DNA of 64,000 nt from Macrostomum lignano (Eukaryota): the NCBI GenBank assembly GCA_002269645.1, contig NIVC01003268.1:1-64000 (forward strand). Direction: 5' to 3'. Positions 875 to 28,886 of this stretch are shown one piece after another. Made by a program: the position numbers and the translations under genes. Below the pieces are notes generated by a model that saw nothing but the letters and a program-made list of their open reading frames with translations, had not been told where the DNA came from and did not search any database. Positions within the stretch are counted from its first letter, which is position 1. Each line of letters starts with the position of its first letter.

Positions 875-904
875 TTTTTAACTAAAAATAAAATAAAATA
901 AGAA

Positions 905-2118: not shown

Positions 2119-2142
2119 AATGCCATTATTTTTGAGAAAGAC

Positions 2143-2535: not shown

Positions 2536-2538
2536 TCC

Positions 2539-2680
2539 AAATGACACATCTAAGTCCCAAAATGACACATCTAAGTCCCGAAATGACACATCTAAGTCCC
2601 GAAATGACACAATTAAGTACCAAAATGACACATCTAAGTCCCAAAATGACACATCTAAGTCCCGAAATGACACATCTAAA
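2539..2680. repeat. 21-bp tandem repeat, about 6.7 copies (AAATGACACATCTAAGTCCCR)
   Basis: Units start at 2539, 2560, 2581, 2602, 2623, 2644 and 2665. Confidence 0.95.
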
Positions 2681-2716
2681 TTATTTATTATTTAATTTTT
2701 TTTCATCATAGAAAAA

Positions 2717-3516: not shown

Positions 3517-3532
3517 AATTTGCTATTAAAAG

Positions 3533-4270
3533 ATGTCGATAAACTTTGCAGGTGAATCCATTTCTGGCAACAGCGCTCTTACATCAGCTCAGATATCCAT
3601 CCTTGACAGGCGATATATCAACAGCGACGAAAAGATCCCAGAGATCAAACTGAATAAAAACAGACTGAAAGCCCTAGAGCGCTCCATGCACCAGTTGCAA
3701 ATAAACATGGAAGATCTCAGGCTTAAAGTAGCTAGGCAGAAGTTTGAAAGTGATAAGCTTTATGTGCCGTTGTTAAACGCAACTAATGAACTAAGGTCAG
3801 AAATAACTTCGATAGTCTCGCTAATCAACGGCTTGAGATCATCAGTTAATCTTCTGGGAAATTCCACTGATAGACGGATGCGTATTCTTGAAGGAGGAGT
3901 TTTCACAAACACAGCTAAAGTAAATAATTTAGAAGAGTTCATGAACCAGTCAACAGCGTTGCATGATAGAATTAAAGAAAACGTCGCAACCAACACAGTT
4001 AAAGTCAATAATTTAGAAGAGTTCATGACTCAGTCAACATCGTTGCATGATCGAATCAAAGAAAGACTTGAAGCATTAAAGAGAAAGGATGTATCACACA
4101 GTAGCTATCTAAACGGAATGTATAGCTCTTGGGGTAAAATAATAAGGAGGCTTGATCGTCTGGAGAGAACACTCAATCTTCGTGATATTGCTATTGATGA
4201 AGCAGAATCTGCTGCTCGTCCGGTCATGTCTACAGATCGAGTAGAAGGAGCTCTGGACCCCGCGGAGTAA
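3533..4270 (+). CDS. Coiled-coil protein with an internal 28-aa repeat
   Basis: Intact 245-aa ORF; an 84-bp direct repeat (3908/3992) encodes TNT(A/V)KVNNLEEFM(N/T)QST(A/S)LHDRIKE. Confidence 0.6.
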   Translation: MSINFAGESISGNSALTSAQISILDRRYINSDEKIPEIKLNKNRLKALERSMHQLQINMEDLRLKVARQKFESDKLYVPLLNATNELRSEITSIVSLINGLRSSVNLLGNSTDRRMRILEGGVFTNTAKVNNLEEFMNQSTALHDRIKENVATNTVKVNNLEEFMTQSTSLHDRIKERLEALKRKDVSHSSYLNGMYSSWGKIIRRLDRLERTLNLRDIAIDEAESAARPVMSTDRVEGALDPAE

Positions 4271-4442
4271 TCCGGCACGCTCTCAAACGTCAGCCGCCCA
4301 GCCGCTGCCTGCTGGACTCGCGATCCTCCGGCGTCACGAGAGCCGCCTAGACAACCGGCGGTGCAGATGGAATTATCAAAAAGAAAACAGATCTTTCAAC
4401 CGGATAGTTTTATAATTTTTTTTATTTTTTCTAGAGAAAAAA

Positions 4443-5161
4443 ATGGCCCAACAAAATTCTCTATACGATCAGTCTCAATACGTTGAACCTAAAATACCGA
4501 CAGCACCAAACTCAATGGCACCGAATTCGAACACACAAAACCTGGCACCGAATCTGAATGCACCCTATGAGCAACAAAAACTCTACCCCGTCATTACTTG
4601 TAACTCTCAACAGTTTCGACTGGTGGAGATTCAAAAAATGCGCGATGATCTTGAAAAAAATATTTTCCACAACACAAAGAAAATTAAGCGCTATGACAAC
4701 CACTGTAAATTTTTCGACTACAGCAATATGATTCTAGGATCTGTGTCTGTTCTATCTGGATCTGCTGCAGCTGTCTCAGTGTTGCCAGTCATCACAGCCC
4801 CAATCGCAATCCCGGCTCTGTGGGTGCTGCATGTGGACTTATTTCAGCAATTACTGGAGCATTAGCGCGAAACAGGCGAAAAAAACTAAAGCAGCTACAG
4901 GAGAAGCAAGTAAAAGAGAAAGGGGTGCACACTTCAATCATAGGGTACATTTCAAGGGCAATCGAGGATAAGTTCATTTCAGAGGATGAGTTCAAAACCA
5001 TTCAGGATCTTTATGAACAATCAATTCGAATGAACTTGAACATGGTCGGTACTGATGACATGAGTCAGCTGAAAATGAACTCGAGAAAGTTTTCAACATT
5101 ATGTGGAAAGAAGTCGGCAACGAAGAAATTCGGCAAGAAGGACGACGAGAATGCACAATGA
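4443..5161 (+). pseudogene. Polinton hydrophobic-hairpin membrane protein, one frameshift
   Basis: QQFRLVEIQKMRDDLEK..KKIKRY, a hydrophobic Gly/Ala-rich segment spanning the two ORFs, then ISRAIEDKFISEDEFKTIQ; pattern recurrent in animal Polintons. Confidence 0.55.
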
Positions 5162-5164
5162 ACC

Positions 5165-5566
5165 CTATGAAACACAGCCAAGAATAATTTCCTTGTAGGT
5201 CTTTCGTGTTTTGGTCATTGCATACAAAACAGTCATGCACAGCTCACCGCAAATATCACTGCTAAGACCTTGGAGAATAAAGTCTGAGCGATAAATTTTT
5301 TTATTATTTTTTCCCTTCATATAATTTCTTAGCTCTTCTGGTACTGCCGTCCCATAGCTATCGAAGTAATAACACTTGTGCTTGCGATCGGGATCAATCA
5401 CCCAGCAAACCCAATGAGATCCTGGCTTATCGGTGGTGTCAAAGTTCATGATGCCGCATTCCTTTCTTAGAGGAAAATCAGGCAGAGTGTCCCTCATAAA
5501 TATTCCTCTAAAGTTTGGGATTTCCAGTTCGTTAGCCAAATCTTCAAGAAAGTTATTTGTCGTCAT
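5165..5566 (-). CDS. Adenain-like cysteine protease (virion maturation)
   Basis: Catalytic His (GSHWVCW), Asp (YFDSYG), oxyanion Gln and Cys (QGLSSDICGELC). Confidence 0.92.
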   Translation of the reverse strand: MTTNNFLEDLANELEIPNFRGIFMRDTLPDFPLRKECGIMNFDTTDKPGSHWVCWVIDPDRKHKCYYFDSYGTAVPEELRNYMKGKNNKKIYRSDFILQGLSSDICGELCMTVLYAMTKTRKTYKEIILGCVS

Positions 5567-5650
5567 TTTTTATGAGGTTTATTAAACTTTCTCTTAAACC
5601 TAAACCTCTCCCCTAACCCACCTCAACCTCCTAAACCCAATCTCCTAAAC

Positions 5651-8600
5651 CTAATCTCCAGTGCCCGAACGGTAGACTGTTAATTTGTCATCAAAAATGA
5701 ATCTCTTGTTATCTGCACCTGACAGTCCAATCTTCTTTTGCTGAATTGTGTGAATAATATGGTTTTTAGATTGTAGCTTTGAGAACTCATGTGATGTCTT
5801 TTTGTTGCAATTCAAGGCGTCTCTGTATTCAGCTTCATTAATTTCCTTCCTAACCACACGTTTCGGAATTCCCTTTGATTTTTTAATTGGGTCTGACGAC
5901 TCACATTTTACAAAATAGGACTTTGCTCTCAACCCAATGAATTCAGTGATTATGTCACCAGCAATCTCGTCCTTCATTTTCCCAATCACTTTCTTGTTAG
6001 TGGCGTCAAACACTTGATCGCCATTCTGTGTCCTAAAGATTCATCATACTCAGACAAGTCAAACAAATCTTTTTGCTGCAGCATGTCCTGATAAATGTCT
6101 TCTGTTTGAATGTCCATAATAAAACTGTCTGTGTCAGTGTACAAGAGTTTCATTTTATCCTTGTACTGCTGCTTCATGCCATAGAAGAACTGGTACATCA
6201 GACGTTTTGATTCGTCGAGAACAGTGACACCTGTATAGATCGGCTTGCGCAGCGTCACCTTGGTTTTGTAAAATATGATCACACCTAAGTAGCTATTAAA
6301 GATATGGAGTTCTTTGAATGTTGGCTTTGACATATTTGCCTGAATAACAGCAGGCTCTGATGAGGTAACAAGTTTCAGGTTTGTTCTTTTCCGCTCATTC
6401 TCAAGAGTCTTGCCATAGACAGAGTTGTTGGCCAACTTAAAGAGGTTCTTGTCAAAGTCGTTGGTTGCTTTGGTCCTAAACTGGGTGTTCTTATCAATGT
6501 AGGGTTTCATCCACGCTTCCTCTGTAAATGTAAGAGCCCTGTGAACTTTGGTGACCCTGCAACCAAGTGAGATAAAATACTGAAGCAGTTTGTAATGGAT
6601 TTTGTAACGTGTCTTGTTGTTTAGATTCTGTGTTAGTTTCTCTGTATGTTCTTTTTCTGTTCCTGACAGGTGCCAAGTTCCATTATTATCATTGGGAGTT
6701 TCGATTATTTTCGGGCACTTGATGTTCTCTGGGAAGGGTGGAAAGTCAGAGAAATAGTCGTGAAGCTCTGGTGGAATGTAAACATCAACTCATAAATGGC
6801 AGCCAATGAAAAGTCCCACTTTAATTCTGATGAGGGTAGCCATCGAAAATCTCTAACTGGAAGATCTTGACTCATCGCCCACCCGTAGAGATTATTAGCG
6901 TCCAAGTAAGTAATGTAGTTTGAGGGCTGCTCCTTATTGTAAGATTCAATGTAGGGATTGTTTGCTTTTGCATACCTGTTAACGCAAATTGAGATCCCCC
7001 TCGCTTTGACGATTCGACAAAATTGTACATGTCAATGTCTGTAAGAAGTTCAATGTACCAATCTGGATCTTGATCCCATTTCATTTTAAGCAAAGATTCC
7101 CAGCTAGTGGCAGGCAGAGACACATAATGTGCTGGATCGAGGCCATATGCTGTGTACCAGGTGTATCTGAAGGTTTCAAACACATCAGCCAGCAGAAACA
7201 CATCTGTGAAGAGGTAAAGCAGGTGATACTGGAAGAAGTTTTGACAATTAAAGTAATTATAGACATGCTTCGCGTGCTCATAGTCTTTGTCAGAGATTCC
7301 AGAGTCTGTTAGCTTTGAAAAGAACTTTCCTGTGGTGGTAAACCTTCTTCAAATACGTGATACCCAGTAATATTTTCATAGGGGTAGAAGCCTTTGGTTC
7401 TCAGGAGTTTAAATGATTCATCACTGTTGTAATTTTACTTGCAAACATCTTTGTATATGTACATTGTTCATCTTTTAGATTCTTGCTTAGTTCGTCTAGA
7501 CTGGCAGCTAGAAATTGATATGAATCCTTCAGTCTTATTTACCTGTACCCGAACTTACCCCCGAATTATCCTGTTTAATATCAACACACTTAAACTTCTC
7601 CTTGTTCTCTGCGATGCAGTCAAGGTGTATGTCTGGAATCATGCCGATTTTTTCAACTATTAAATGCATGTCATAGTTCTTTGCGTTGTGACAAAATATC
7701 GTTAGATCATGAATGTTCGATTTTAGCTTTAGATTACAGGTGTTATGCGCTGCACCTCTAAATTTCCCAGTAAAGTGGCAGTGGTCCCTAACGGTGGGGT
7801 TTTTAATATTAGTGCAAGTTAAATGTTTCCTGCAGATGTGGCAATGAGTTGCTGATAGGAAATTGCTTTCATCCTCCTCAGTCATCATTATTGGAACAGG
7901 TTGAAGGGTGCTAATCACTTTTGCAACTCTAACATTCTGGCAATAAACTGCTCCACACACTGCTCTCCAAAGAAATAATTATACTCAACAAGTCCTTTTG
8001 TATTAATAAAGGCATATGCTACTGAATTGGGGACATGTTTTTGAGTTTGAGTTTGTTTTTGTGTTTCCGGCACGATTGAGCATTCGAAATCAGCATATAC
8101 AACAAATGGGAGCTTCTCCATCTTGTGATAGTTCTTAAACCGAGATACTTCTCTTCAGCTGAAGGAAGAGAGCAGTTTGTCGGGTGATCCTCGCATGATA
8201 ATTCATGCTCTGTTAGTTTTTCAAAGCGTTCAGGTCCACTGTAATGCTTAAGGCACAAGCGGCAGATGGCAACAGCCTCGTGATGATTATTCAACTGCTT
8301 GTGAATGAGTCTTGAAAGATCTTTAATCCAAACATAGTGAGCCTCCTCTAGTAAATTACCAATCACTAGAAGATCCACTTCAGTCCGCCTTTTCCCCTCA
8401 GGATCTAAAACGTCTTTGCTACATCTGACCGGTTGAACTTTCTCAGTTTTTTCACTCCACTCAAAGACTGTGATTCTAATTTTGTTATTAAACACCTCTT
8501 CCAGCTTTGGGATCTGAGAGATCGCCAAGCCTCCTTTGTCAAACCTGATTCCCTTCTTTTCGCATTCGATAAGATAGTAGTTGAAATAATTTTGATAATT

Positions 8601-9470
8601 TGAGGTTCTTTCGGGGTGGTGAGGTACACTATCATGAAGAAGTGCAGAAAGAACTGCCCATAGAGCACAGCAATTGTCTTTATTTTTAACATTTATGCAA
8701 GCTTTTTTACCGGCTAGCTTATGCGGGAGCTCTATATAAGAGGAGGCTTTAAGTGGGTCATATTTCATGACCATGACAGTTGCTCTTTGAATCCCTCCCA
8801 CGACCCATCCGGAGCCTCTGGATGTAAACGCTTCAATTTTCTTAGTGACATCTTGAAGGAAAGGATCCAGTGTGTCTGTTGGGGTGAATGGCTTTGCCTT
8901 TGTTGTCATGTAATACTCGAGATGCTCAGTGGGTTTCGCAGGCATATAAAACGCAATCTTGAATGATATCTGTAGTTTAAAGGTCTTGCGTGTTTTGAGT
9001 GTGTGATCAACAACTGATTGGATGCTGTCTTTATAGTCGTAGATGTTTGCGGTGGTGCCGTTTATTGGGATTGTGTACTCTATGTAATGTTCTGTAAACT
9101 TCCTCTGTGCAAAATTAATCTCTTCAATGGCAAGCTCCGACTCTTTTAAATGGATTAATTGCTCTAATTTCTCTTGTTCCTGCTTATTTTGTGGGTACTT
9201 TGCTTTTTCACCAGTGAGAGTTTCGTATTTGTTAACTAAGTTGCGACTCCTCTCTTGGTGTTCCTTTGCAGAATTTTTTATAGGCGCATACTGGTTGGAT
9301 TCTAATTGATTGATGATTTCCAACTGTTTTTCATAGCTTCCCAGGTGACCAGGGTCTGTGTTAAACGTTTGTTTACATGCTTCTCTTAGTGAATTACTTT
9401 TGTCTTGAAATGAGACGCCTTTTGAAAAATATTTGTTGACTAAATCTTTTGCTGGATTAGCTTTTGGCAT
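5651..9470 (-). pseudogene. Protein-primed family B DNA polymerase with an internal endonuclease-VII-like zinc motif, multiply frameshifted
   Basis: Exonuclease VVYADFE, CHIC...VRDHCHFTGKFRGAAHNTCNL, FCHNAKNYD, polymerase motifs DANNLYGWAM, KLANNSVYGK and YTDTDS, IGLRAKSY and KSKGI, spread over 7 ORF fragments. Confidence 0.95.
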
Positions 9471-9663
9471 TTTTTTCTATAAAAGAAAAAAAAATTTTTG
9501 AGGGTGACCACCCTGATAGAAAAGTTGAACTGTTTCTACATCCTATCAGTAGTATTAGGTTTATGAAGCTGGATAAAGTGGGGTTTTAAACCTCATCACA
9601 TGCGCATTATTGTAAACCCAGCATTGTGCAGTGTCATGATGGCTTTGACAATGTCAGACTTGC

Positions 9664-10041
9664 TTACAGAATTTTCATGCTCAAATCATCACGATCGGGG
9701 CAGCCCTCTCCTGCCTTAATTGTTATACCTTTGTCTCTTGCAATCTTTTGCAATTCAAGCTGGTGGGCTCTATCATTACCAGCTTTAACAGCAGTTGCTA
9801 CACCTCCAGCTACACCACCTGCGGCACTCACAGCGCCTGCAATGATCGGAATAAGAGCTGCTAATGGTAGGATTCCTCCTGACTTTTCATCTGTGATGCT
9901 GTGTCTTTGTTCATTACATTGAACTATTTGCTGCACGGGATCGACTTTTACTTTGGCACCTTTTATTGATATAAGACCTGGTCTCTTTGAGTCAATGATT
10001 TTATTGAGTTTATTGATGGTTCTGGTTTCAATCTTTGTCAT
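9664..10041 (-). CDS. Adenovirus pX(mu)-like core protein
   Basis: KSGGILPLAALIPIIAGAVSAAGGVAGGVATAV closely parallels the adenoviral pX C-terminal GG/ILPLLIPLIAAAIGAVPGIASVAL. Confidence 0.7.
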   Translation of the reverse strand: MTKIETRTINKLNKIIDSKRPGLISIKGAKVKVDPVQQIVQCNEQRHSITDEKSGGILPLAALIPIIAGAVSAAGGVAGGVATAVKAGNDRAHQLELQKIARDKGITIKAGEGCPDRDDLSMKIL

Positions 10042-10057
10042 TTTTTATTTTAATATT

Positions 10058-11053
10058 TTAATTAATTTCCGTGTCAGCTGGTATCACTAGGAGTTCAGCT
10101 CTAGTGAATGACCGCGTGGGGGATTTAGGGTTAAAGGTTTGAGATAAAAAGTAATAGTCTCCAGAGTCGGAGGTAAAATGTCTGTCTATTTTATGTACAT
10201 CAAGGCTGAAGTATGGATCTGTAGCTCTTCTTTTGGTGTCTTTCTCTAGCTCTCCAGGTAGATATAAAAAGCGTAGAAACTCAGAGTTTGTCAGTATGTA
10301 TGGTGATTCAACTCCTGGAAGCTTAGGGTAGTTTGAGGTGTCTGTTCTATGAGATGACTTAAGTTCGACAGTGTCTTGTTTAATTGCATGGGACGGTTTC
10401 AATTCAGTCATGCGCGTGACTTCATTGTTCAGTTGCTCTATAACAGTGGGGAGCCGGTCTGTCCACTTGGTATAGTACTGGCCACTTTTTAGTTTCAGCT
10501 CCTCTGCTGTCTGCTTAGTGAATAGCCTCTTGGCTAGAGTTAGATTGAATCTTTCCACAAAAGCCTGGTCTCTGTGGAGCTCAGTTCTTCCATAGCGAAT
10601 TTTTGTGTCATACTTATGTAGAAGTGATATCACTGCACCCATGAATTCTTTACCCGGGTCCGTCATAAAGATTTCAGGGTAACTAAGGGGTGAGTTTTTA
10701 TAAATATCTTGGAGGGCGGCTGCAACTGCTTCTGACTTCTTCGTCTTGAGTGGGCGAGCTTCCTTATATCTGGAAGCAATGTCAATAATTGTAAGAGCAT
10801 ACTTGTAGCCTGAGTCGTTGGGGAGAAACAAAAGATCTGCTTGGTGCGCTTCATTAGGTTTATAGATGCTAAAGTGAGGTCTCGTAAATTGAACAGGTGG
10901 GAAATAGACTTGAAAGACAGCCTGCTTAGAGAGCCACTTTTCTACTTTAGCTTTTGGTTCCTTACTTAGTTCTGCGAGTTTGGTGACTGCATTTTTTCCT
11001 ACAAAGAATCCTTTGTCGCTGTAGTAGAGTTTTTTAAGTTTCTGATCTGTCAT
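10058..11053 (-). CDS. Retroviral-like DDE integrase of Polinton type
   Basis: Intact ORF, likely ATG 11053. Catalytic D (HQADL), D (TDPGKEF), E (AFVERFN); C-terminal KRRATDPYFS...RSFTRAELL. Confidence 0.95.
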   Translation of the reverse strand: MTDQKLKKLYYSDKGFFVGKNAVTKLAELSKEPKAKVEKWLSKQAVFQVYFPPVQFTRPHFSIYKPNEAHQADLLFLPNDSGYKYALTIIDIASRYKEARPLKTKKSEAVAAALQDIYKNSPLSYPEIFMTDPGKEFMGAVISLLHKYDTKIRYGRTELHRDQAFVERFNLTLAKRLFTKQTAEELKLKSGQYYTKWTDRLPTVIEQLNNEVTRMTELKPSHAIKQDTVELKSSHRTDTSNYPKLPGVESPYILTNSEFLRFLYLPGELEKDTKRRATDPYFSLDVHKIDRHFTSDSGDYYFLSQTFNPKSPTRSFTRAELLVIPADTEIN

Positions 11054-11083
11054 TTTTTTAAAAAGAAAATTTAAAATAAAATA

Positions 11084-11554
11084 ATGCAACGCTCTGGTGG
11101 TAAGTTAGATTCACATGGACTGATAGAAAAGCTTCCTCATCCAAACAAAGGCTGGACACTTCCCGGCTATAAATATTGCGGGCCTTTGAATCCACTTGAA
11201 ATACAGTTAGATAAAAACAATAATCCACATCCTGGGCATGAGCCTGTGAACGAGCTAGACTCTGTCTGCATGTGGCACGATGTTAAATATAGAGATTTTC
11301 CTGAGGAGAAGAATCGCTGGGACAAAGAAATGCTTAAGAGACTAGACAATATAGGGGCTTCAAGCGGATTTCGTGAGTCGATTGCTCGGAAGCTAGTTAA
11401 AGCTGTTATTTTTAGTAAGGCAAAGTTGGGTTTGGGGTTCAAGGCGAAGGTGGGTGTTTGGGGAGAGAGGGCGGGTGTGCGGAAAGAGAGGGCGGAGGCT
11501 TGGAAGCAGGGTTTATTTTGTGTGCTCCTAACAAGAAATTGGGAAGACTGCTGA
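11084..11554 (+). CDS. Parvovirus-VP1-type phospholipase A2
   Basis: Ca-loop LPGYKYCGPLN, catalytic HD (CMWHDVKY), second Asp (WDKEML). Confidence 0.88.
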   Translation: MQRSGGKLDSHGLIEKLPHPNKGWTLPGYKYCGPLNPLEIQLDKNNNPHPGHEPVNELDSVCMWHDVKYRDFPEEKNRWDKEMLKRLDNIGASSGFRESIARKLVKAVIFSKAKLGLGFKAKVGVWGERAGVRKERAEAWKQGLFCVLLTRNWEDC

Positions 11555-11710
11555 AAGAGCTGGGGTAGAGAGAGCGCGCGTGGGGGAGAGAGATTTTCAC
11601 TTTAACTGAGCCCAGCCGGGGAAGAATTCCGTCTCGAGTGAAGGCCAGAATGCAAAGGATTTCGGCCTCGCGCGAGGCCAAAATGAAAACGATTTTGGCC
11701 TTTCAGTTTT

Positions 11711-11980
11711 TTAACGCAATTGCTTAATGATTTCTGCAAAGTTATAGTAGCTGTCGTAATCTTTTACATAGGTTACTCCATACTTATGAAACCAGTGTCT
11801 TTGGAGAGCTAGATTAATATTAGGGACATTGATATGAACGTCGGGCCAATATTTTTTCATGTATTCGCTGCATTCAAGTTTGCATCGGTACTTGGATTTG
11901 TACAATGGATGAGGCTGAGTATAATAAGAACCTGGAGAGACAACTGGAAACATTTTTAGAGAAAATTTAGATTTTTTCAA
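11711..11980 (-). CDS. Hypothetical 89-aa protein, accessory block
   Basis: ATG-initiated Tyr/Lys-rich ORF, co-oriented with neighbouring accessory genes; no motif recognised. Confidence 0.35.
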   Translation of the reverse strand: MKKSKFSLKMFPVVSPGSYYTQPHPLYKSKYRCKLECSEYMKKYWPDVHINVPNINLALQRHWFHKYGVTYVKDYDSYYNFAEIIKQLR

Positions 11981-12505
11981 AGGGTAAGGACCCTGCGCTG
12001 ATGCTTTAAAGTCTTAGGGATCTGGTCTCGCGTTGCAAATTGAATGTGGGGAGAAGAATGCAGATTATTTTCTGATTGTCTCGAAGATGCTATGGGTGGA
12101 TTTGGAGCTGTTATGCTCAGAGCATAAACCCTCAGAGCATAACAGTAGGACACCTGTTATGCTCTGATTCTGTCAGAGATAATATGGATGGATTTAATGG
12201 GATTATGGAGGACGTTTTGTGAGCGAGTGCGACCCCCCTTTTTTTCTGATTCTGTCAGGGATAATATGGATGGATTTAATGGGATTATGGAGGACGTGAA
12301 AAATTTTGTCCCAGAAGCCCCCTCATGCCTTCTACTAAAAAAGAACGAACGCGCTTTGATGGCATGGCCAACAAGTAGGGAATTCCCAACTTGTTCCTTG
12401 ATGCTGGTCAAGGAATAATCGAATAATCAAGGGCCAACTGTTTTATTAAATCACATTTCAGATTGTCTTCATGTAGCAATTAAGGCGAGTCAAAACGCGA
12501 GTCAC

Positions 12506-13185
12506 TCAGCCAGAAGGATTAATAATCTTGCAAACTGTGTCCACAACATCCTCAAGAGTAGTCTCTGGCAGCACTCGGATCTTGTGCACAGTTTTGAAAA
12601 GAGCAAACTGTGCATGCAGCTCCTCCCGTAGTTGTTCAAGATAACTCAGTGTAATGTGCTGCTCCCCACCTCGGTTTCGCTGTTGAATGCGCTCCAGTGC
12701 AAGCTCGGGTGTGATGTCCAGATAGATTAGTGTGGCATCAGATTGAAAGCAGTTGGTAAACATTTCATACAACCGAATCATCAGATTCAGTTCAAAGTTA
12801 GTCAACCGATCCTGTTTGTACAACAGATTTGAAAAGGCAATTCCGGATCGTAGGTGTCGGTCCATTACTATCAGATCAATCGGCTGGCGGCCCTCCTTCA
12901 CCTCGTTTGTCGCAAATTGAACTGCGGCCATGTCGCGTCCCATCAGCTCTTGGTACACCAACGTTTGAAAAGCAAATGCTGACAGTTCACCAGAATAAAA
13001 CTTCTCCAGGGCGCCGCAAAAAGGACCCTCGCTGCGGCAAAAATTTGCACCGGCAGAAAATGAGCACGCTTCCTCCAGTTGTCTAGTCTTGATCGTAGTG
13101 CCAAATTATGCAGTACGGTGGATTTGCCCGCTCCCAACAGTCCTTCAAGGATGAAGACGCTCGGTGCAAAAACGATATTTGCCAT
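12506..13185 (-). pseudogene. Deoxynucleoside kinase (dNK family), one frameshift
   Basis: P-loop ILEGLLGAGKST. After a frameshift near 13100 the frame reads ALEKFYSGELSAFAFQTLVY, then IVMDRHLRSGIAF, LIYLDITPELALERIQQRNRGGE (lid) and YLEQLREELH. Confidence 0.88.
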
Positions 13186-13194
13186 TTCAGATTA

Positions 13195-13767
13195 CTAGTT
13201 GTTGGATATAGGATCGATTGACTGCAAGATATTATGCGTTGAATTAGGAATCGAAAGCTTTAAGTATGTTTCAATACATGATAAAATAGAGGAGAGTTCT
13301 TGGGCATTTGCTGGGCCCATTATGACCAGCTTTTTTGAACAAAACAAATTTGCAAACAAACGTTTATTCCAGCTGCAGCGCAATCGCACGGCTTGAGGAA
13401 AAGTTTCTGCATCGTAGCTCACAGTGAAACCAATGAAACATCCAATTCTTAATTTTAGCATAAAAAATCTGTCTGTTGCGCTATAAAATTCATATTCACC
13501 AACATATGTTGAGGTTTGAATACGTATTGAATTAAAATCCAGCTTAAAAACAGAATTGTGAATTGCCAGGAGTGTGGATATTAATTTGAGATTTGATGCA
13601 CATCGAAAAATTGTAATTTTTCCACCAGGATAGATTTGCATAGTATAGCCAGCACTCGTAGCAACTCTCAGCATAGAGGGTCGTCCAAAATAGAGTTTGC
13701 AATTGAATCCGCTTTTTAGCAGTTTTAGCTGAAGCTGAAATAAATCTAGTCCATCGGAACCGCTCAA
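13195..13767 (-). CDS. Divergent TATA-binding-protein (TBP)-fold protein; true 5' end probably near 13865 and frameshifted
   Basis: Two TBP half-repeats: LDL..., TMQIYPGGKITI (cf. ALIFSSGKMVC), IRIQTST (cf. FKIQNMV), VSYDAETFPQAV (cf. SSYEPELFPGL), ANLFCSKKLVIMG (cf. LLIFVSGKVVLTG). Confidence 0.78.
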   Translation of the reverse strand: MSGSDGLDLFQLQLKLLKSGFNCKLYFGRPSMLRVATSAGYTMQIYPGGKITIFRCASNLKLISTLLAIHNSVFKLDFNSIRIQTSTYVGEYEFYSATDRFFMLKLRIGCFIGFTVSYDAETFPQAVRLRCSWNKRLFANLFCSKKLVIMGPANAQELSSILSCIETYLKLSIPNSTHNILQSIDPISNN

Positions 13768-13917
13768 ATCCAGTTGTGCGCTCCCGACACTCTGAACAAT
13801 TCTCTGAAAATTTCAAACCAGAAATAAGTCTGAATAAGTCGTGGTAAGACAAAGAACTTGGTCATCAGTTTATTATAATAATAATAAGTCGGGTAGTTAG
13901 CAAAAGCGCTATTGCAG

Positions 13918-14283
13918 TCAGGCTAAATGTCTCGCGGATAGCAGTAGGTAGGCAGGCGAATTGCTAAAGATAAGCACTAAGGCGAGTAAACCAGCCTTGC
14001 AGTCTAAAAGCCAAGCAGCAGATTGACGAGAAGAAAAGCGATGTAAACGACGTAGAGCATCTAATGAAAATAACAATTTGCGTTTAAAAGGATAGGCTAG
14101 AAAACCCGAGCTATATGCTTTAAAACATGTGAGGAAGTTGAATCCAAGGCGAGCCGATCTATTTAAATGTTTACGAATATTCAGGTGCTCGTCCTTGCTA
14201 CTAAAAATTTGCCAGAAATAGTTAAAGTTTATGATAGTGCGAGACGTCAGACATGCTGAAAAAGTCCCTCGCAGCAATGACAC
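13918..14283 (-). CDS. Hypothetical 121-aa protein, accessory block
   Basis: ATG-initiated ORF tightly packed between neighbours; no motif recognised. Confidence 0.3.
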   Translation of the reverse strand: MSLLRGTFSACLTSRTIINFNYFWQIFSSKDEHLNIRKHLNRSARLGFNFLTCFKAYSSGFLAYPFKRKLLFSLDALRRLHRFSSRQSAAWLLDCKAGLLALVLIFSNSPAYLLLSARHLA

Positions 14284-14293
14284 CAGTTGGAGC

Positions 14294-15473
14294 TTAAGCG
14301 AACAGACTGCAATCCGAATCGGAGGATCTGTTGCTCGAGGCTTCAGCTCCAGCTAGCTGCTTGGCATACGAGAGATCCTTAGAGGCGACTCGCTTTCCCG
14401 GCTGAACCGTAGGCGAACTTACGAGCTTCTTGACTGCCGGTACTTCAGCCCAGTCGGGATCGCTTGCTGGTCCACCTTTGCAAGCAGGCTGGTTCTTAGG
14501 AGCGCTCGCGGCAGGCCTTGGACGTTTCGAATTCTTGCTTGGTGGCGGCGGTGGTGATGAGGTTCTCCTCTTCTTCTTCGGCGTGGTGCTGCTCTCACTT
14601 CGATTCTTGCCGGTGGCAGTGAGAAGACTTGGAGTAGGCAAACTTGAAATTTTCTCCTCGTTGCTGTGTTCATGCACAATCCGATACTCGGACAGAGGTC
14701 CCTGCAGGTTCCCTATCAGGCCGGTAGTGTTTCCATCAGACAGCCACACCAGAGATCGGATGCAGGCGGCAAGTCGCCAGGCTGGTGCCCCCTTCGGAAG
14801 GTAGAGCGAAGTGATTTGCACCGTGATCTGGTAGAGTCCGCTTCGCTCGCTGAAGTCTCGGGCGAAACCTCTTGGATTGTGCGGCTGCCCTCGTTGGTGG
14901 AGAATGTTGTGCATGGATAGTTGGGCTTGATGCCGATCCAGGTAATTGGGTTGGCACCGCTCGCGTCAGGACTCTTAGTGAGTCTAATGAGCCCCATTCG
15001 GTCAGATTGCTGGTGAAGTGCCTTCTCGATCGACTTCTCGATCGCTCTGGAAAGAATATGACAGATAGCAACGTAAGAAAATTGCAGTAAACTTTAATTT
15101 CTAACCTGGGATGCGGTTCACAAACCAAAGAATAGGATTGTATTTACCTCAAAGTTGAAACCAGCTGAGGGCAAATGCCCTTGGCTTGAAAACCAAGTGC
15201 GATAGCTTCTCGTCCTTCGTTGACCGAGTGTTCTGTGCCCGCACCGCTGTCTGTTCGGTGCAAACCGCGAAAGAGTAGAATCGGCTGTTGAGACTGCAGT
15301 AGAATCGGTAGTTTCTCGTGCTTGTCGCCCACCGGAGTCCAAGAGAGAGCGCGGAACTGACAGTTGTTGGCAAACTTGGGCGAAGAAGCTGGCTCGACAT
15401 GGATTGTAGGCCGCGTCTCGGGTGAAACAAACTGCTGTGCGCTTAAGACTTCTTCTTTAGCGAAAAACGCCAT
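14294..15473 (-). pseudogene. Degraded gene of about 390 codons, possibly OB-fold ssDNA-binding protein with a basic NLS-bearing tail
   Basis: ORFs 15144-15473 and 14736-15128 share a frame, separated by one TAA; two further frameshifts link to 14294-14914. Tail contains PKKKRR. Confidence 0.35.
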
Positions 15474-15528
15474 GATGGTCGGTTAGTCTCCCTCGGTCTG
15501 CTCCGGAAGATTCTAAAACACCACTTCC

Positions 15529-15535
15529 TTATATA
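15529..15535 (-). promoter_or_regulatory. Candidate TATA box heading the accessory cassette
   Basis: TATATAA on the minus strand about 55 bp upstream of ATG 15473. Confidence 0.4.
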
Positions 15536-15636
15536 CTGTTTTTTGAAAAGGTTTCCGGATAGTTCACCCAAATCGTCTGAATTCTTTACTTCTCCCGAAA
15601 CGCTTTTAAGCCATATCAAGCTGTAAGTTCAAACAT

Positions 15637-15810
15637 CCTGACCTTTTGATTGAACATTGCGTTCTGGGGCTTGCTTTCCCTGACATTTCGATCTGGAGCG
15701 ATTTGTGGCCAGCTGTTTCACTTAAAAGTTGTCAGTTTTATCTTCCTGACCTTTTGATTGGACATTGTGTTCTGTGGCATGCTTTACCTGGAATTTCGAT
15801 TTGGAACGAT
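15637..15810. repeat. Subterminal imperfect direct repeat (period 108 bp), probably within the right terminal inverted repeat
   Basis: CCTGACCTTTTGATTG(A/G)ACATTG... begins at 15637 and 15745. Confidence 0.8.
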
Positions 15811-16056
15811 TTGGAGGCAATTTATCTTTACGAACAGTTGTTTTAGAAATTTAACAACTAGCGTCGGCGGCGAGGGAAAGAAAAACTGGAGGTCTGCGCT
15901 TTGTGGAAGAGAGGAAAATTGCGCCCCAGTTGCTATCGGGAGAGGGTTGAAAATTTGTCCGAAGTTTCGGCTATCTCCCATGTATATTGCCCATGTACCA
16001 ACCATACATTTTTCGTATTTAAAAAAACCCTCCGTGTCCGATTTTTATCTACTACT

Positions 16057-16310
16057 CTGGCCCACTTTTCAACAGGATCTCGCCAACTGCTCCCTTGATG
16101 ACCAACAAGCTCTCGTAACTGTTGCTTCTGGACAGCTTGGCTTCATTTGAATGGTGAGCAGGCAGCGAGCTGAGCAGATCTCAGCTGAGTAATCCAAGTT
16201 CTGCTAGTCTTCAATGACGGGCAGCTCCTCCGCCGCAACGAAGCGGCCATCAGAGCCAGTCTTCACCAGGCACTCCGGCATGACCGTCCTACACAAGCAT
16301 CTGAGACTTT
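16057..16310 (-). mobile_element. Ty3/gypsy relic A (protease C-terminus to start of RT)
   Basis: Near-identical to 58600-58860 and homologous to 48350-48740. Confidence 0.85.
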
Positions 16311-17129
16311 TGTTTATTTTATTTTATTTTATTGTATTTTAGTATAGTTTATTAGTTTAGTTTAGTATAGTATAGTATAGTATAGTTTAATTTAGTTTAG
16401 TTTAGTTTAGTTTAGTTTAGTTTAGTATAGTAATAGTTTAGTTTAGTTTAGTTTAGTTAAGTTAAGTATAGTTTATTTTAGTTTAGTTTAGTTTAGTTTA
16501 GTTTAGTTTAGTTTAGTATACTATAGTTTATTTTATTTTAGTAAGGTATAGTTTAGTTTAGTTTAGTTTAGTATAGTATAGTATAGTTTAGTTTAGTTTA
16601 GTTTAGTTTAGTTTAGTTTAGTTTAGTATAGTTTAGTTTAGTTTAGTTTAGTATACTATAGTTTATTTTATTTTAGTAAGGTATAGTTTAGTTTAGTTTA
16701 GTTTAGTATAGTATAGTATAGTTTAGTTTAGTTTAGTTTAGTATAGTATAGTTTAGTTTAGTTTAGTTTAGTTTAGTTTAGTTTAGTATAGTATAGTTTA
16801 GTTTAGTTTAATTTAGTTTAGTTTAGTTTAGTTTAGTTTAGTTTAGTTTAGTTTAGTTTAGTTTAGTATACTATAGTTTATTTTATTTTAGTAAGGTATA
16901 GTTTAGTTTAGTTTAGTTTAGTATAGTATAGTATAGTTTAGTTTAGTTTAGTTTAGTTTAGTTTAGTTTAGTTTAGTATAGTATAGTTTAGTTTAGTTTA
17001 GTTTAGTTTAGTTTAGTTTAGTTTAGTATAGTATAGTTTAGTTTAGTTTAATTTAGTTTAGTTTAGTTAAGTTTAGTTTAGTTTAGTTTAGTATACTATA
17101 GTTTAGTTTAGTTAAGTTTAGTATAGTAT
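16311..17129. repeat. (TTTAG)n/(TATAG)n pentamer microsatellite with recurring variant blocks
   Basis: Direct inspection; the block GTATACTATAGTTTATTTTATTTTAGTAAGG recurs three times. Confidence 0.97.
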
Positions 17130-17226
17130 TGACTTAAACTTGACTCAGCTGCAGGGCTTTCCCGGGGGGACACAGCGGGAAGGCGCGAGCGCCCATTCCG
17201 CTAATCCCTGAACGGCCGACGCGTCG

Positions 17227-20200
17227 CTATGGACGAAGGGTTGGCGCCGCCCAGGGAGGTCCCCCAGTGTCGCCAGCAGCTATGGTGCTCTTTGGAAAGG
17301 AGAGTTCAGCCCTGCGGGTGGCCCGGAGGTAGCGCATGAGCTGGTTAAAGTTTTCGGGTTTGCACGCTTCAGTAATAGATGTGTGTGGCCCGAGGTAAGT
17401 GAGTCTGGCTCGCGTAAAGGCGGGACAGATGCTGACGAAATGCTCAGCGGTTTCGTCACCTGAGTTACAGAAACTGCAGATGGCGTTGGTGGCGTTGCCC
17501 TGCAGGTACTGGTGCCTAGAGAAGCAGCCGTGACCTGAGAGGGTCATGGTGGTAGCCTGGATGTCTCTGCGTGAGAGGCACAAGAGGAGCTTCCGGAGCT
17601 GGTGAGAGGGTTGAGGGACAGCGCCTCTGGATTGCCTGCAGTTCGTGCGGTTCGCCCAAGTCGAGCGGTGCTGAGTCCTGATCCACGCTTTGATGCGCGA
17701 GTCGATGACACAGCCAGGAATCGGGACAAGGGGTTCGGGACCGAGAGAGGAGCCGGAGGCGCCAACTTTCGCAAGGGCGTCAGCCAACTCATTCCCTCGG
17801 ATCCCCACATGCCCGGAACCCACTTGAGGGTGATTTTGTTGGTGGAGCCCAACATGTTGAGGAGTTTGATACAGTCGAGGACTTTAGCAGAATTGGTGCT
17901 GCAGCCGCTGATGGCGTGCAAGGCAGCTTGGCTGTCCGAATGGAAAGTGATGTTGTTACCGGTAACGCCAGTGGCGAGGAGCTCTGCGGTGCAGGAGCTG
18001 ATGGCAAGAACTTCATTTTGGAAGACACTAGAGTTGACCCCAGTGTACTGAGCTTGGGTTGCGATAACCCTCCCGTTCAGGAAGATTCCAACACCAAAAC
18101 CGGTGTTGTCTGACTGCTTAGAACCATCGGTGTAGCAGTGAAGCTCACCAGGGTTCCAGTGGTCATAGAGAGTATCTCGCGAGTCGATAGCTACGGAGTA
18201 GCGTTGTCTCAGGTTGAGCGTTGAGGCAATGCCATCGGTGAAGACCCGATTGGCCTGACACTCGTTGAGGATGTTGATGCACAGGTCGCTATGCGGGACG
18301 AGGTTCCGCTTAGCAAGTGCCCTCATGTAAAGGAATTTGACACCGGCATAAAGTAAACGCCCGGTCGTTCTAGCCGCCTCACCCCTGACGAAGAGGTCAA
18401 GAGGCGGTAGATTAAGGAAGGCCCCATGCCGGCAAAAGGCGTGGACCTGGTGGCGTTGCAGATAAGCCTACACGCTCTGCCCTGGATCGTGTTGAGCAAA
18501 TCTGCCTGGTTAGCGCTAACCCAGACAACCGAGGCGTACGTCATGGCAGGTCTAACTACGGAAGTGTAGATCCACCAAAGCCGTTTTGGGGATAGACCCC
18601 AAAAAGTGTCAAATGCTCGACGGAGCTGGGCCAGGATGGCTGAGGCACGCTAGGCTTTTGCTTTCACGTGGAAGGACCAGTTGAGCCGGTGGTCAAGTAT
18701 GACCCCGAGACATCTGGTCTGGTGCGCGAAGGCAATATCTCTGCCGTAAAGCTGCAGAGGTCGTATGTTCCAGCGTATTCTGCTGGTGAACATAATGGCA
18801 ACAGTTTTGGGCTCAAAGAGTTCCAGACCGTTGTTATTGGCCCAGGATTCTGCTTCGCGGATAAAGCTCCGCATCAGATCCCTGAGCGTGCTGGAGGACG
18901 GCCCAGCCACAATGGCAGTGACATCGTCAGCATACCCGACTTTGAAGACGGGATCAGGTCAGGAGTCACCCAGAAGAGCGTCCATGACCAGGTTCCAGAG
19001 CGTCGGGGTGAGGACTCCGCCTTGGGGTCCACCCTTACAGACTCTGGCGGAGGCAGTTTGCCCAAGAAGTTGGGCAGTGACCGTACGGTTGGAGATCATG
19101 TACATGATCCACCGTATGAGGGTAGCGTGAGCTTTGCGATTTTGAAGGGCCCTTTGAAACGCTTCAAAGATAACGTTGTCGAAGGCGCCAACAATGTCGA
19201 GAAAAAGAGCCAGGGCGTTACCGTCACCCAGTACCGCCCGTTCAATCTTCTCGACTATCGCATGCAGGGCGCTGTCAGTCGACCTCCCGGTACGGAAGGC
19301 GTGCTGATTATTGCTGAGAGGCATTGCTGTCAGCTCGCAAGAGAGCAGCCGCCAGAGAATAAGCCTCTCAGTGAGCTTAAGCATTGCTGACGTTAAGCTA
19401 ATTGGCCTAAAGGCCTTGACGCTCTGGTAGTCACCCTTCCCAGGTTTGGGAATAAAGACTACCCGAGCTTCAGTCCAGCATTTGGGAACGTATCCCAGCT
19501 GGATAGAGGCCCGCATAAGATTGCGGGTGAGTCTCAGGAACGAGGGTATCTTGGCTGCTTCACGAAGGAGAACAGGGTAGATACCATCAGGTCCAGGAGA
19601 TTTGAAGGGTTTGAAGGTTCTGACCGCACGAGCGATTAGGTCTTCAGTGACAATGCCCGCCGCTAGGGTGGCTCCATCCATCGAATGGTTGGGCTCCGGT
19701 CTAGCAGTAGGTACCCTCGGGAAGAATGTGCTGAGCATATGCTGAAGCACTTCTTCAGGGTCTTTAGTAAGAGAGCCATCATCTTTTTTGATCATGGCTA
19801 ATTTGAACATTTTGTCCATTGTAAGGGCCTTGACAAGCCTGGAAGTAGGTCTGTCTTGATCCAATTCATTGCAGAATTGGCGCCACTTACATTCCTTGGC
19901 CTTGCGCACTTCAGATTTGAAATTGCGGGAGGCTTGCCGGAAAAGCTCCATGTCCTCCGGGTTTCCGGTCTTCATGGCACGGCGGTGAAGGCTTTTGGCC
20001 TTCCGCCTGAGTTTCCCCAGCTCCGGGTTTCATTACGGCGCCGAGGTCTTGCCTTTGTAGGCACGGACAGGGCAGGCCGCCTCATAGGCTGCAATAATGC
20101 AACCTGTCAGCGTCTCAGCCGCATGGTCCACATCCTCGCAGGTCTCAATCGGACGTAAGTCCGTGAGTTCCTGCAGGTGCAGATCAAGGGTAGCCTTATA

Positions 20201-20953
20201 GGCCGCCCAATCTGTGTTGCGGATGTTACGCCTCCAAGTAATCGAGGACTGGGGTTTAGTGTCCGCGATATTAAAGGCGATAAAGCAGTGGTCAGACAGG
20301 GAGGGCTCCTCAGACCAGACTCTCCACTCCTCAACTCTGTCAAAGAGTCTTGGGGTAACGAGTGTGGCGTCAAGGACCTCAGTCCATCTGCCATTGTTAA
20401 AGGTAGGAGTGCTACCGCGGTTGCAGAGCATGAGGTTTGTGTTAGAGATAAGGGCCAGAAGCTCCTCCCCTCTAGTATTTGTGTCTTTGCTGCCCCAGTG
20501 CTTGTGGTGCGCGTTGAGGTCGCCCCCTAAGCACAGCTCAGCGTTCTGGGACTCGCAGTACTGCGCAAGGCGCAGTAAACTCTCGGGAGCAGGGTCTCTG
20601 TCGCCTGGGATGTAAACCGAGGCAACAAGACACGTACGCGGAGAGAAATGATTAGATTGGATGACGCAAAGATCTCCAGCAGAGAGATCAGTCCTCAGCC
20701 AAGCCTGGAGATGGCTAGCAGCGAGGATAGCCGCTCTAGGGCGGCTGTTCCCCGGGCCACACACATAAAAATCAGAGTAGCCAGAGGGAATGTTGGGCAA
20801 CTTACCGTTGCGCATCCAGGGTTCTTGGATCAGGATAAGGCCTGGCCTGTACAGCTCAGCAATCTTCATCAGATTTACTGACGCAGATACGCAATGCTGT
20901 AAATTTATTTGCAGACAGAATGTCGCTCCTTTGGCAGCGTGGAGCTTAGTCAT
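17227..20953 (-). pseudogene. LINE ORF2: AP endonuclease, reverse transcriptase, RNase H, zinc motif; several frameshifts
   Basis: QINLQHC, LIQEPW, GDLNAHH, LDATL, SDHCFI (APE); KSPGPDG, FRPISL, QHAF, FLDIVGAFD, GGPQGGVL, GYADD near 18925 (RT); CYTDGSK, QNEVLAI, FHSDSQA, GNELADALA (RNase H). Confidence 0.95.
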
Positions 20954-20992
20954 ACTGTATTAAATGCAATATCTGGCTAGAGCCCAGGGCCA

Positions 20993-22555
20993 TCAAGGAG
21001 ACTTGGACAACAGATCGTCCTCGTCCCAGGCCGCTGGGGCTTGACTGGGAGATGGGAGTTGGTCGACGTCCATGGCCTCCTCACCCCCACCGGCCCCCCC
21101 AGCAGAGTGCTCAGGCTCCGATGACAGGATGGAGGAAGCTTCCTCATCTGCATCTTTACCTTCAGACCCCACCAGGGTGGCCGAGGAGAGCTCGGATTCC
21201 GAAGACCCGGCCTCGTCCTCAACTCCTTCTCCGACTGGCAGGTTTGGTTTCCGGGGCTTGGCCGGAGCCGTTACCACGGTCGCCGAACTGCTTCTAGCAG
21301 AGGGGCGAGACGCAGCTTTGGCTTTGGGATCGGCTTGCGCCTTTCCTTGGGCCTTAGACTGCGCCCCGCTCTTGCCGGAGATGCCGGGGTTGGCAGTAGC
21401 CTTCCCTTTGGCAGACTTTCCTCGGTGCATCTTGAGCTTGAGGGCACCCAGCTGGAAAGAGGATCCATTAGGGTACCGACTCGCCCAAGCGTTGGAAAGG
21501 CCGAGGACAATTGAGTTGCCCGTCTCCCCCCTGCGGACTCGGCGGTGATACACCAGTCGACTAGCAGGGAGGTCGGGGTTCAGACGCAGTAGGACCCGGC
21601 GGATAACGTCTGGTCCAGCTGCGGTGCTCTTAGCAGGGACGAAAACCACATAGGGTATCGTCTTTGGACGCTGGCCCTCGCGAAGAAAAAGAGCTCCACC
21701 AAGGTCAGCATCCAAGGAGACCGTCGGTAGCCGCAGGAGCAGCTGCCGAGCGTCCTCCTCGCTGCTAGGAGCAATAAGAACGAATGTGCTTCGCAGCACC
21801 ATCCGCTCAATGCCGATGGAGATTCCCTCCTCGACAGTCAGCTCAATCAGATAGGAGTCAACAGCACTCCACACTTTTTGAAGCTGATCAGTGGTCCAGT
21901 CCTGGTCGCGACCTTGGATGATCACTCCCGGGATTTTGGCCTTGGCCTTTGCCGCAAAGGTAGCTCCCGAAGGAACCTCCTTGTTGGCAGTGGCCATTTG
22001 TTGCGCCGTGGTTTCGGCCTCAGCAGCCGCGGCAGCAGCTCCAGGGAGCGCCGCCGCTGAACTACTGGAGCTTCCACCGGCCGGCCCGCCTGGTTGCCTT
22101 GGGACTCCAGTCGCTTCAGCATCCATGGTGGACGCCGCCGCTTTGGCCCCCGCAGCTCCCTTCTTGGCATGCCTTTTGGCGCGTTGTTTAGCGCGTTTGC
22201 GCTCAAGCCGAGCCCGCTGAGCTTCATCGGATCTGCCAGATTTGGCCGGTCCTTTAGGCTCAGAGCTCGCGGTTCCCTTAGATCCACCAGCGGAGCTGGC
22301 AGGTCTTTGGGTATTTTGAGTTTGGTAGCTCTGGTCGGATCTGCCAGCAGAGCCAGCCGGTCCTTCCTTTGCCACAGTTGAATCAGTCGGTTGGGATCTG
22401 CCAGCAGGGCCGGCCGGTCCTTTGGACTGAGGTTGGGGTTTAGAAGGGTCCCCGTCCCTAGAAATAGCTTGTTTATCCATAGTCGGCTCGAAGGCCATGA
22501 TAAAAGGTTGGTGGGCCACCCTCAAAGGGGCGCGGTACCCACCCGGCCGCTTCAC
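20993..22555 (-). CDS. LINE ORF1 (520 aa)
   Basis: Intact ORF directly upstream of ORF2; central globular region (LLRLNPDL..LVLGL..FQLG pattern) resembles LOA-group ORF1, flanked by low-complexity tails. Confidence 0.85.
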   Translation of the reverse strand: MKRPGGYRAPLRVAHQPFIMAFEPTMDKQAISRDGDPSKPQPQSKGPAGPAGRSQPTDSTVAKEGPAGSAGRSDQSYQTQNTQRPASSAGGSKGTASSEPKGPAKSGRSDEAQRARLERKRAKQRAKRHAKKGAAGAKAAASTMDAEATGVPRQPGGPAGGSSSSSAAALPGAAAAAAEAETTAQQMATANKEVPSGATFAAKAKAKIPGVIIQGRDQDWTTDQLQKVWSAVDSYLIELTVEEGISIGIERMVLRSTFVLIAPSSEEDARQLLLRLPTVSLDADLGGALFLREGQRPKTIPYVVFVPAKSTAAGPDVIRRVLLRLNPDLPASRLVYHRRVRRGETGNSIVLGLSNAWASRYPNGSSFQLGALKLKMHRGKSAKGKATANPGISGKSGAQSKAQGKAQADPKAKAASRPSARSSSATVVTAPAKPRKPNLPVGEGVEDEAGSSESELSSATLVGSEGKDADEEASSILSSEPEHSAGGAGGGEEAMDVDQLPSPSQAPAAWDEDDLLSKSP

Positions 22556-28806: not shown

Positions 28807-28814
28807 TATATAAA
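28807..28814 (+). promoter_or_regulatory. TATA box of fibrinogen-related gene copy 1
   Basis: TATATAAA about 75 bp upstream of ATG 28887; conserved in copy 3 (62309-62316), destroyed in copy 2. Confidence 0.6.
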
Positions 28815-28886
28815 TGCAGCCATTTTACAGGATGCAGCTGCAATCCTCAGATTACCGATACAACAACGAAAGGCGAACTTGACTCG

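Follow-up and report, generated by a model that had tools for sequence, protein, structure and literature searches.

We have analysed a 64,000-nucleotide stretch of the genome of the flatworm Macrostomum lignano (contig NIVC01003268.1, positions 1 to 64,000; the window), in which the minus-strand frames between 11711 and 15535 had been taken, in a preliminary description, for one five-gene cassette (SSB-like, unknown, TBP-like, deoxynucleoside kinase, unknown) grafted onto the Polinton to its left and lying within the terminal inverted repeats (TIRs) of that element. We find instead that the left Polinton, A, ends at position 12336 and that the genes beyond it occupy the right 3.72 kb (12337..16056) of a second Polinton, B, into which A has inserted. 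Reading inward from the right end of B, there is a canonical TATA box, a spliced SSB-like gene, a gene encoding a protein with a TBP fold and a deoxynucleoside kinase (dNK) gene, followed in B by pPolB. We present evidence that the TBP-fold gene is native to a lineage of Polintons whose virion genes are preceded by a non-canonical promoter box, and that the TBP variant may be what reads this box.

A DNA search with positions 11700-16250 (the best 40 of 727 candidates were scored, giving 61 matches) splits at a single base: 11700-12336 is similar to many A-family ends, and 12336-16056 is matched at 99-100% by five other contigs in alignments that start exactly at 12336; for the B arm 12337..16056 the identity to these contigs is 99.4-99.8%. 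The right TIR of A (11727..12336, ending in ...CTTCTACT) matches A's other end on contig C4948 at 99.7%, the terminus at 12336 is shared by 13 of 14 A-type loci (in 11 with unrelated flanks), and the A copy on C1831 has a 657-bp inverted pair. Positions 1-11554 of the window are the interior of A, with an integrase, pX, a protease, a PLA2-like gene and pieces of pPolB. The 80-amino-acid open reading frame (ORF) at 11711..11953 (minus strand), which had been counted as the fifth gene of the cassette, also belongs to A: it sits almost wholly within A's TIR, is present at both ends of the C1831 copy and at A's other end on C4948, and has no match in a Pfam search. The insertion of A took place in a pre-existing B, immediately upstream of that element's pPolB frame, since AAAAAA flanks A on both sides (as a 6-bp target duplication at 12337..12342, plus strand, in the window, and on C4948 after B-left sequence and preceding A's other end) and since the outer flank on C2158 is the CTGGCC of the window. 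There this 6-bp target duplication of B lies at 16057..16062 (plus strand), and the identical hexamer stands beside B's left end on C2158. On both C2158 and C4948 the left 13.7 kb of B is joined to A's other end, the C2158 junction being that of C4948 with two adenines fewer; an exact pattern search for this left junction gave only five intact B copies, and the junction was found once one substitution was allowed. That the A/B junction is an assembly chimera strikes us as very improbable. Mis-joins through B do occur (the flanks of the C4619 copy are unmatched, and C4948 and C2158 differ in the B-left flank at the junction), and no loose end at the junction was found in four sequencing runs, but the join coincides with A's last base, the two junctions lie on separate contigs with a common 6-bp duplication, and the C2158 flank matches that of the window.

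These observations leave the proposed graft onto A scarcely tenable. The block does run in the same direction as A's last ORF, and its GC content exceeds A's, but A terminates at 12336, blastn finds no similarity between A and B, both target duplications are present, and the block, as part of B, has a core, AGTAGTAG termini, target duplications and 191-bp TIRs of its own rather than lying inside the TIRs of A. Separate copies of B, in which the block occurs with its own termini, are what the preliminary description had itself named as evidence against a graft. The compositional step that it had noted by eye is real (0.455 in the window arm of B vs 0.407 in A), but B's own core is equally rich (0.476; 0.471 for B overall), and because that core matches the block, the step is one between the compositions of A and B. 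Nested insertion is in itself ordinary. We also note more nesting at C986:295001-315000, C1090:53933-56340 and C1391:120039-125120, in the form of a family-C element that lies inside or next to an A-family one and of insertions that interrupt pPolB in B-lineage copies.

B is a Polinton/Maverick by its pPolB, integrase, ATPase and protease and by its TIRs and target duplications. It measures 17,458 bp in the copy at C4619:71-17528 and is full length there and on C1975. Its termini have AGTAGTAG ends, AG..CT, with 191-bp TIRs (the right TIR, at 15866..16056 in the window and ending in ...CTACTACT, matches the left TIR on C4619, C1975 and C1704 at 95%) and 6-bp target duplications (AACATG on both sides of the C1975 copy; CTGGCC and CCCCTC across contig pairs); four different target hexamers imply at least four insertion sites. 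In the C4619 copy a frame of 1478 codons encodes pPolB (PF03175, E 2.5e-25). The integrase, 26% identical to that of A, matches Chromo (E 8e-6) and, below cut-off, rve (E 2.5e-4); the packaging ATPase (Pox_A32, E 0.003) and the protease (Peptidase_C5, E 0.04) give weak matches, both below cut-off, and keep their places across families. B also codes for a pX-like protein and a dUTPase, and all core genes lie on one strand. Pfam gave no match for the putative capsid proteins, whose labels come from size, position and 65-69% conservation, and in part from motifs that we take to be typical of such proteins. In one copy of B (L026) the pPolB gene (L026:3701-8134) encodes a C2H2-like zinc motif at the N-terminus and, in addition, a zinc domain resembling that of Endonuclease VII (PF02945, E 4e-10). 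B positions 7912-8133, in the dUTPase-ATPase interval, hold a 111-nt tandem duplication that includes four TATAAG sites, and a short basic ORF is found near this region in relatives.

The early unit at the right end of B lies on the minus strand. As the preliminary description had stated, a TATA box heads it: the sequence is TATATAAG (15535-15528), a candidate early promoter 62 nt upstream of the first ATG at 15473, and a canonical box precedes the first ATG at 54-101 nt in families B, E, F, H and I. An 88-nt direct repeat (15618-15705 and 15726-15814, 83%) between the TIR and the TATA box is possibly an enhancer-like pair. The first gene has two exons. Exon 1 (15148..15473, minus strand, 109 codons), aligned with five relatives, has R41, W45, P56, Q60, G70 and R88 invariant; exon 2 (14294..15046, minus strand) encodes a beta-rich domain and a low-complexity tail and is frameshifted near 14859 in the window copy. 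The 101-nt GT..AG intron between them (15047..15147, minus strand) is skipped in three of the four sequencing runs compared (X1, X2 and X6, but not X17), which come from three studies and which we guess to be RNA, none of the runs being recorded as such; contig depth in them cannot rank genes. The product is the UniRef gene model P0004 of M. lignano. The gene had been rightly recognised, but its identity as an SSB is a lead only, drawn from one Atlas language-model search in which part of the protein scored 0.94 to clusters rich in Nucleocytoviricota; in some clusters near it, DUF5871/DUF2738 is found in 10-29% of members. Pfam and PDB searches with the protein gave no match, and its model (pLDDT 44.5) had no usable match in either fold search.

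The dNK gene (12506..13185, minus strand) was also correctly identified, although it is split over two frames near 13050-13100. By its sequence it is a member of the dNK family, with a P-loop in the 5' frame and the dNK core in the 3' frame (PF01712, E 9e-16). The split is present in all six assembly copies compared, two of four runs deviate by a small indel in that area, and a relative has a single open frame (PF01712, E 8e-25). Family D (~29 copies; C84:1063001, C1135; L089-L091) has the same early unit without dNK, and the kinase is therefore dispensable. In family E (L093:5871-7289, minus strand, C362; L095, C297) a single open frame covers both TBP and dNK, and the two may be fused; the dNK there has retained its own Met and contains an internal insertion. 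We find no support for a gene in the second 'unknown' frame of the cassette (13918..14352, minus strand, 144 codons): it has no ATG and no Pfam match, it matches only the six B copies (seven candidates scored), relatives have just 138-257 nt in this region, and a 124-codon open frame in the 490-nt gap is equalled by 66 of 5000 shuffles, a modest chance probability.

The TBP-fold coding exon (13195..13803, minus strand, 202 amino acids) has no ATG of its own and begins at a phase-0 splice acceptor (AG at 13805-13804). That it is TBP-like, as had been suggested, is borne out by structure prediction (pLDDT 88), by which the two-repeat saddle fold is confirmed and with which Pfam matches of orthologues agree. 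In a PDB structure search with the predicted model the top 39 listed rows (ranks 1-44) are all TBP-containing (E 1e-8 to 2e-6). The window protein alone has no match in Pfam, and a single-sequence PDB search with it gave nothing relevant. The alignment behind the model included the host TBP, and the assignment of the fold leans also on an Atlas search (0.95, with TBP in 30 of 30 matches), on matches to PF00352 (at some level in 10 of 11 database homologues; in all five genomic orthologues tested, four of them over cut-off) and on a profile built from 15 non-host rows, which found 35 PDB sequences, all TBP-containing (best E 5e-21). A profile search that contained host TBP was circular and was not used. 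The protein is 25% identical to host TBP and, judged by its residues, is a variant and not a canonical TBP, as it lacks the full complement of intercalating Phe (four) and Asn (two) that canonical TATA binding calls for. All ten B-clade proteins retain the second stirrup Glu and the Phe pair of the second repeat. A search of viral and metagenome contigs for loci around the TBP relatives P0001-P0003 and P0006-P0019, whose own contigs are 1-6 kb long, gave none.

Several lines of evidence argue that this is a native, selected module of a Polinton lineage, and we hold this with high confidence. The SSB exon has 67 matches in the genome (82 scored) and TBP has 72 (76 scored; some are split pieces). 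TBP stands directly behind SSB in nine of ten non-B loci sampled, the tenth being rearranged, and dNK is also present in seven of those nine. Within this one genome the order of the early unit recurs in five Polinton families besides B, and five loci show the whole order: SSB, TBP, (dNK), pPolB, dUTPase, ATPase, mCP, pX, unknown, integrase, pVII-like, MCP, protease. TBP has evolved under purifying selection. The TBPs of relatives are 37-44% identical to that of B; between families pS is 0.64-0.91 vs a pN of 0.18-0.53, with synonymous sites saturated, and omega is 0.14 for the single unsaturated inter-family pair. In a tree without giant-virus sequences the B-lineage TBPs and four unnamed database proteins form one clade (95/89). 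Because the order is conserved in six families with saturated synonymous sites in TBP, and because the GC content of the block matches its own core, the block is not a recent graft. We considered the low GC content of the B TBP gene (0.37) as a sign of recent capture and rejected it, as relatives range from 0.34 to 0.48. The block may or may not derive from a large virus: the nearest Atlas clusters of both the TBP and the SSB-like protein are rich in Nucleocytoviricota, but a donor of the TBP cannot be named, since identities to viral folds are 7-18% and cellular TBPs fit the model as well. The preliminary description was right to liken the block to the early genes of a more self-sufficient group of polintoviruses, with functions in DNA binding, transcription and nucleotide supply.

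A second type of Polinton TBP emerged from a search of the genome with PF00352, which gave 150 scored matches of 330 candidates, all over cut-off. Besides the host TBP and a TRF2-like gene the matches are mostly multi-copy, and all seven multi-copy TBP loci sampled adjoin pPolB and ATPase, four with TIRs in the fetched stretch. In family C a PC4 gene takes the place of the SSB-like one and TBP comes last in the structural unit; this TBP groups with host proteins (98/96; long branches, with no outside references in the tree). The family is high-copy (C1113:339142-355084, C96, C530, C130, C84, C136, C986; L061-L078), with probably >100 loci by PF00352. In family A no TBP was found in the three sequences searched. 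Immediately upstream of the ATG, its genes (C1831, L039-L040; window 1-11554) have AT-rich runs that end in A's. Such runs resemble poxvirus-type late starts, and family A may have a different, possibly helper-driven mode of transcription.

In five B-lineage families TATAAG is the top hexamer of the half of the element that follows pPolB, with 39 sense vs 2 antisense occurrences where 9.7 are expected; the early half has 3 sense vs 3 antisense. The bases that follow are C (28/39), A (27/39) and A (30/39), giving a non-canonical box, TATAAGCA; one of the 39 sites is a canonical TATAWAWR, and TATAAGC occurs 28 times in sense and never in antisense. The box precedes mCP, pX and MCP in all five families, pVII in four and the protease in three, lying 43-55 nt before the mCP, pX and pVII-like starts (in one case 86 nt) and 124-165 nt before the MCP start, within the upstream coding region. 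Family C has another box, CTTAAGAA (28 sense, 2 antisense, 1.65 expected), which sits before integrase, mCP, ATPase, pX and TBP. The B lineage has no CTTAAGAA on either strand, TATAAGC in family C is found at 3 sense and 0 antisense sites (2.3 expected), and family A, counted for both, has neither TATAAGCA nor CTTAAGAA. The weight of these counts lies in the contrast between families and not in a p-value, which would be overstated.

On balance we think it probable that the TBP variant reads the box to drive late genes. In TBPs generally, the second repeat reads the 5' half of the box. Nine of ten B-clade TBPs, whose box has T in first place, keep a Pro that favours T at box position 1 according to the accessible part of a study of viral TBP (PMC12529657); in both family-C rows, whose box begins with C, another residue stands there. 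B and its relatives would thus be one-directional Polintons with two transcription classes. The canonical TATA box near the right TIR, read by host TBP, would give an early transcript for the SSB-like protein, the TBP variant, dNK and pPolB, and RNA processing would provide the missing ATG for TBP and, in several families, for pPolB; the TBP variant would then bind TATAAGCA and recruit host Pol II, turning on the capsid, core and protease genes. More tentatively, and aware that the whole may well fail in one of its parts, we propose that flatworm Polintons acquired TBP at least twice, that the private TBP/box pairs (TATAAGCA and CTTAAGAA) are a one-protein early-to-late switch on host Pol II for 17-kb integrating viruses, and that the B-lineage TBP is made as an alternatively spliced SSB fusion that ties late transcription to replicating genomes. 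The B copy in the window is probably defective, because A separates its early promoter from pPolB and its dNK is broken.

A number of observations weigh against reading of the box by the element's own TBP. Both DNA-contacting Asn are replaced in the B-clade TBPs, in the first repeat Tyr replaces one Phe and the column of the other is unaligned, and this altered DNA face may mean weak DNA binding or a decoy role. The box stands before the ATPase in only one of three located starts. The family-C TBP ends the box-carrying unit and has a box itself, and would need a priming step. The boundary between early and late halves (position 7800) was chosen after the data had been seen, the sites are homologous, the members of family C are close kin, and the comparison comprises two TBP types with one TBP-less family as negative control. 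Both boxes also have TAAG in common. TAAG is the core of the baculovirus-type late promoter, and a helper polymerase could read both boxes. It is possible, therefore, if rather unlikely, that the boxes are read by the late RNA polymerase of a helper virus (baculovirus/nudivirus-like, DTAAG, which both ATAAG and TTAAG fit) or by host TBP acting on weak TATA variants. The element TBP, with neither Asn left and two or three of the four aromatic positions intact, would then serve another purpose, for instance as a competitor for host TFIIB or a brake on host transcription. We favour the element's own TBP as the reader since, in the B lineage, only TATAAG is strand-biased (the counts being 20/18 for [ACG]ATAAG, 24/19 for GTAAG and 29/19 for TTAAG), since the bases flanking the box vary by family in step with TBP type, and since family A has neither box.

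How the TBP obtains an ATG bears on the fusion part of this proposal. In all six families a pyrimidine tract and a phase-0 YAG immediately precede the TBP fold, which has no ATG; pPolB likewise begins at an acceptor in families E, F and I, and such an acceptor is present in B. Cis-splicing could supply the ATG, from a donor conserved in the tail of the SSB-like gene and with an SSB-TBP fusion as the product; so could trans-splicing of a host leader, and we consider the two about even. The candidate alternative 5' splice site in the window, GTAAGT (14417..14422, minus strand), lies in phase 0 in the SSB tail (K-x-L|V-S), and SSB exon 2 of each of seven elements from six families contains exactly one phase-0 GTRAG, 42-50 codons before the stop (shuffle probability 0.05-0.18 per family, the families not being independent). 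Evidence against the fusion is that no such joint is found among the joints in the four runs, that one X6 contig is unspliced across both fusion splice sites, and that no fusion-length protein is found among 11 database matches. The alternative, in which a host spliced leader is joined operon-style to the phase-0 acceptor and yields free TBP and free pPolB, we rate at somewhat under an even chance. Flatworm spliced leaders end in AUG. AATAAA lies ~70 nt ahead of the TBP acceptor in B and H, though not in D and I, and it also precedes pPolB in B, E, H and I. In the host, according to the accessible text of one study, 30% of genes are leader trans-spliced and 15% are in operons, but trans-splicing requires an acceptor with no cis donor upstream (PMC8629364), and the phase-0 donor in the SSB tail is conserved in all six families.

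Viruses with their own transcription factors offer partial parallels. Nucleocytoviricota TBP-like and SSB-like (DUF2738/DUF5871) proteins are the nearest Atlas clusters and BFVD folds to those of B. Nucleocytoviricota usually bring their own RNA polymerase, however, and none is seen in B. The adenovirus E2 unit combines a DNA-binding protein and a protein-primed polymerase under one promoter, with splicing, but has neither TBP nor dNK, and we claim no kinship between the first protein of B and the adenovirus DNA-binding protein. In beta- and gamma-herpesviruses, vTBP (KSHV ORF24) and TATTWAA late promoters likewise combine a viral TBP fold with an altered DNA face, a non-canonical box before structural genes and canonical early boxes; in the accessible part of that work, ORF24, a large multi-domain protein, belongs to a complex of six factors and has four Phe but not the TFIIB-binding acids (PMC12529657). 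The Polinton TBP, unlike ORF24, is a bare 200-amino-acid core that keeps the acidic stirrup and has a different box, and no genes for partners such as the five activators of the herpesvirus system are found among B's ORFs. By analogy, the TBP of B may work like the herpesvirus vTBP without belonging to that system, with no homology beyond the fold.

B shares with Polintons/Mavericks, as the accessible parts of two papers describe them (PMC8502044, PMC8097293), a PF03175 pPolB (as in Alpha adintoviruses), an rve integrase with chromodomain, an A32-like ATPase, an adenain-like protease, a pX-like protein, (AGT)2 ends, TIRs, 6-bp duplications and accessory genes near the ends. It differs from other Polintons in its core genes on one strand, its intron-containing early unit (intact vertebrate elements are described as intronless), its TBP, dNK and dUTPase, and its lineage-specific boxes. 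A TBP gene is not unprecedented among Polinton-like elements: the legend to Fig. 5 of Starrett et al. lists 'TBP', without comment, among non-animal MELD viruses and related elements (PMC8502044; preprint 10.1101/697771), and the one supplement of PMC8502044 searched for TBP gave no match. Coral polintoviruses with VLTF3 are Polintons with a giant-virus-type late transcription factor, but a different protein (PMC11131425, the main text of which does not contain the words TBP, TATA or promoter), and bidna-type viruses have a thymidine kinase and a dUTPase (PMC11071296, accessible part). The accessible text of PMC11161782, 10.64898/2026.10.13.758929, 10.1101/2023.08.22.554363 and PMC11296320 has no passage on TATA or promoters. 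We found no literature on TBP or TATAAG boxes in animal Polintons, in a search that lay outside Repbase and most subscription journals. New here, then, are the non-canonical box before virion genes in TBP-bearing Polinton families and a second family with a different TBP and box.

A TBP variant with its box is a concrete, easily tested answer to how animal Polintons time their capsid genes and to whether they need a helper virus. The pair would indicate that an ordered virion programme has been under selection in a laboratory flatworm in which the element is transcribed, and if our reading is true, a small integrated virus has its own late-gene switch; if the SSB-TBP fusion is true, late transcription would be tied to replicating genomes. 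Two natural TBP/box pairs in one genome would also make a ready test of a change in TBP specificity.

Lastly, we note several features away from the early unit. Palindromes of two inverted half-Polintons, which may be either real derivatives or artefacts of assembly, are present at C975:122373-133902 and C272:387843-397490, with 5.4-kb arms that are 99% alike in C975. Within the window, a long TTTAG-type microsatellite (16310-17130) has on its right a non-LTR retrotransposon (17227-22498, minus strand), in which ORF1, endonuclease, reverse transcriptase and RNase H-like frames can be recognised by eye. A fibrinogen-domain-like gene (28746-34025, also by eye) lies just before an array of ~495 copies of a 23-bp tandem repeat (34218-45900).

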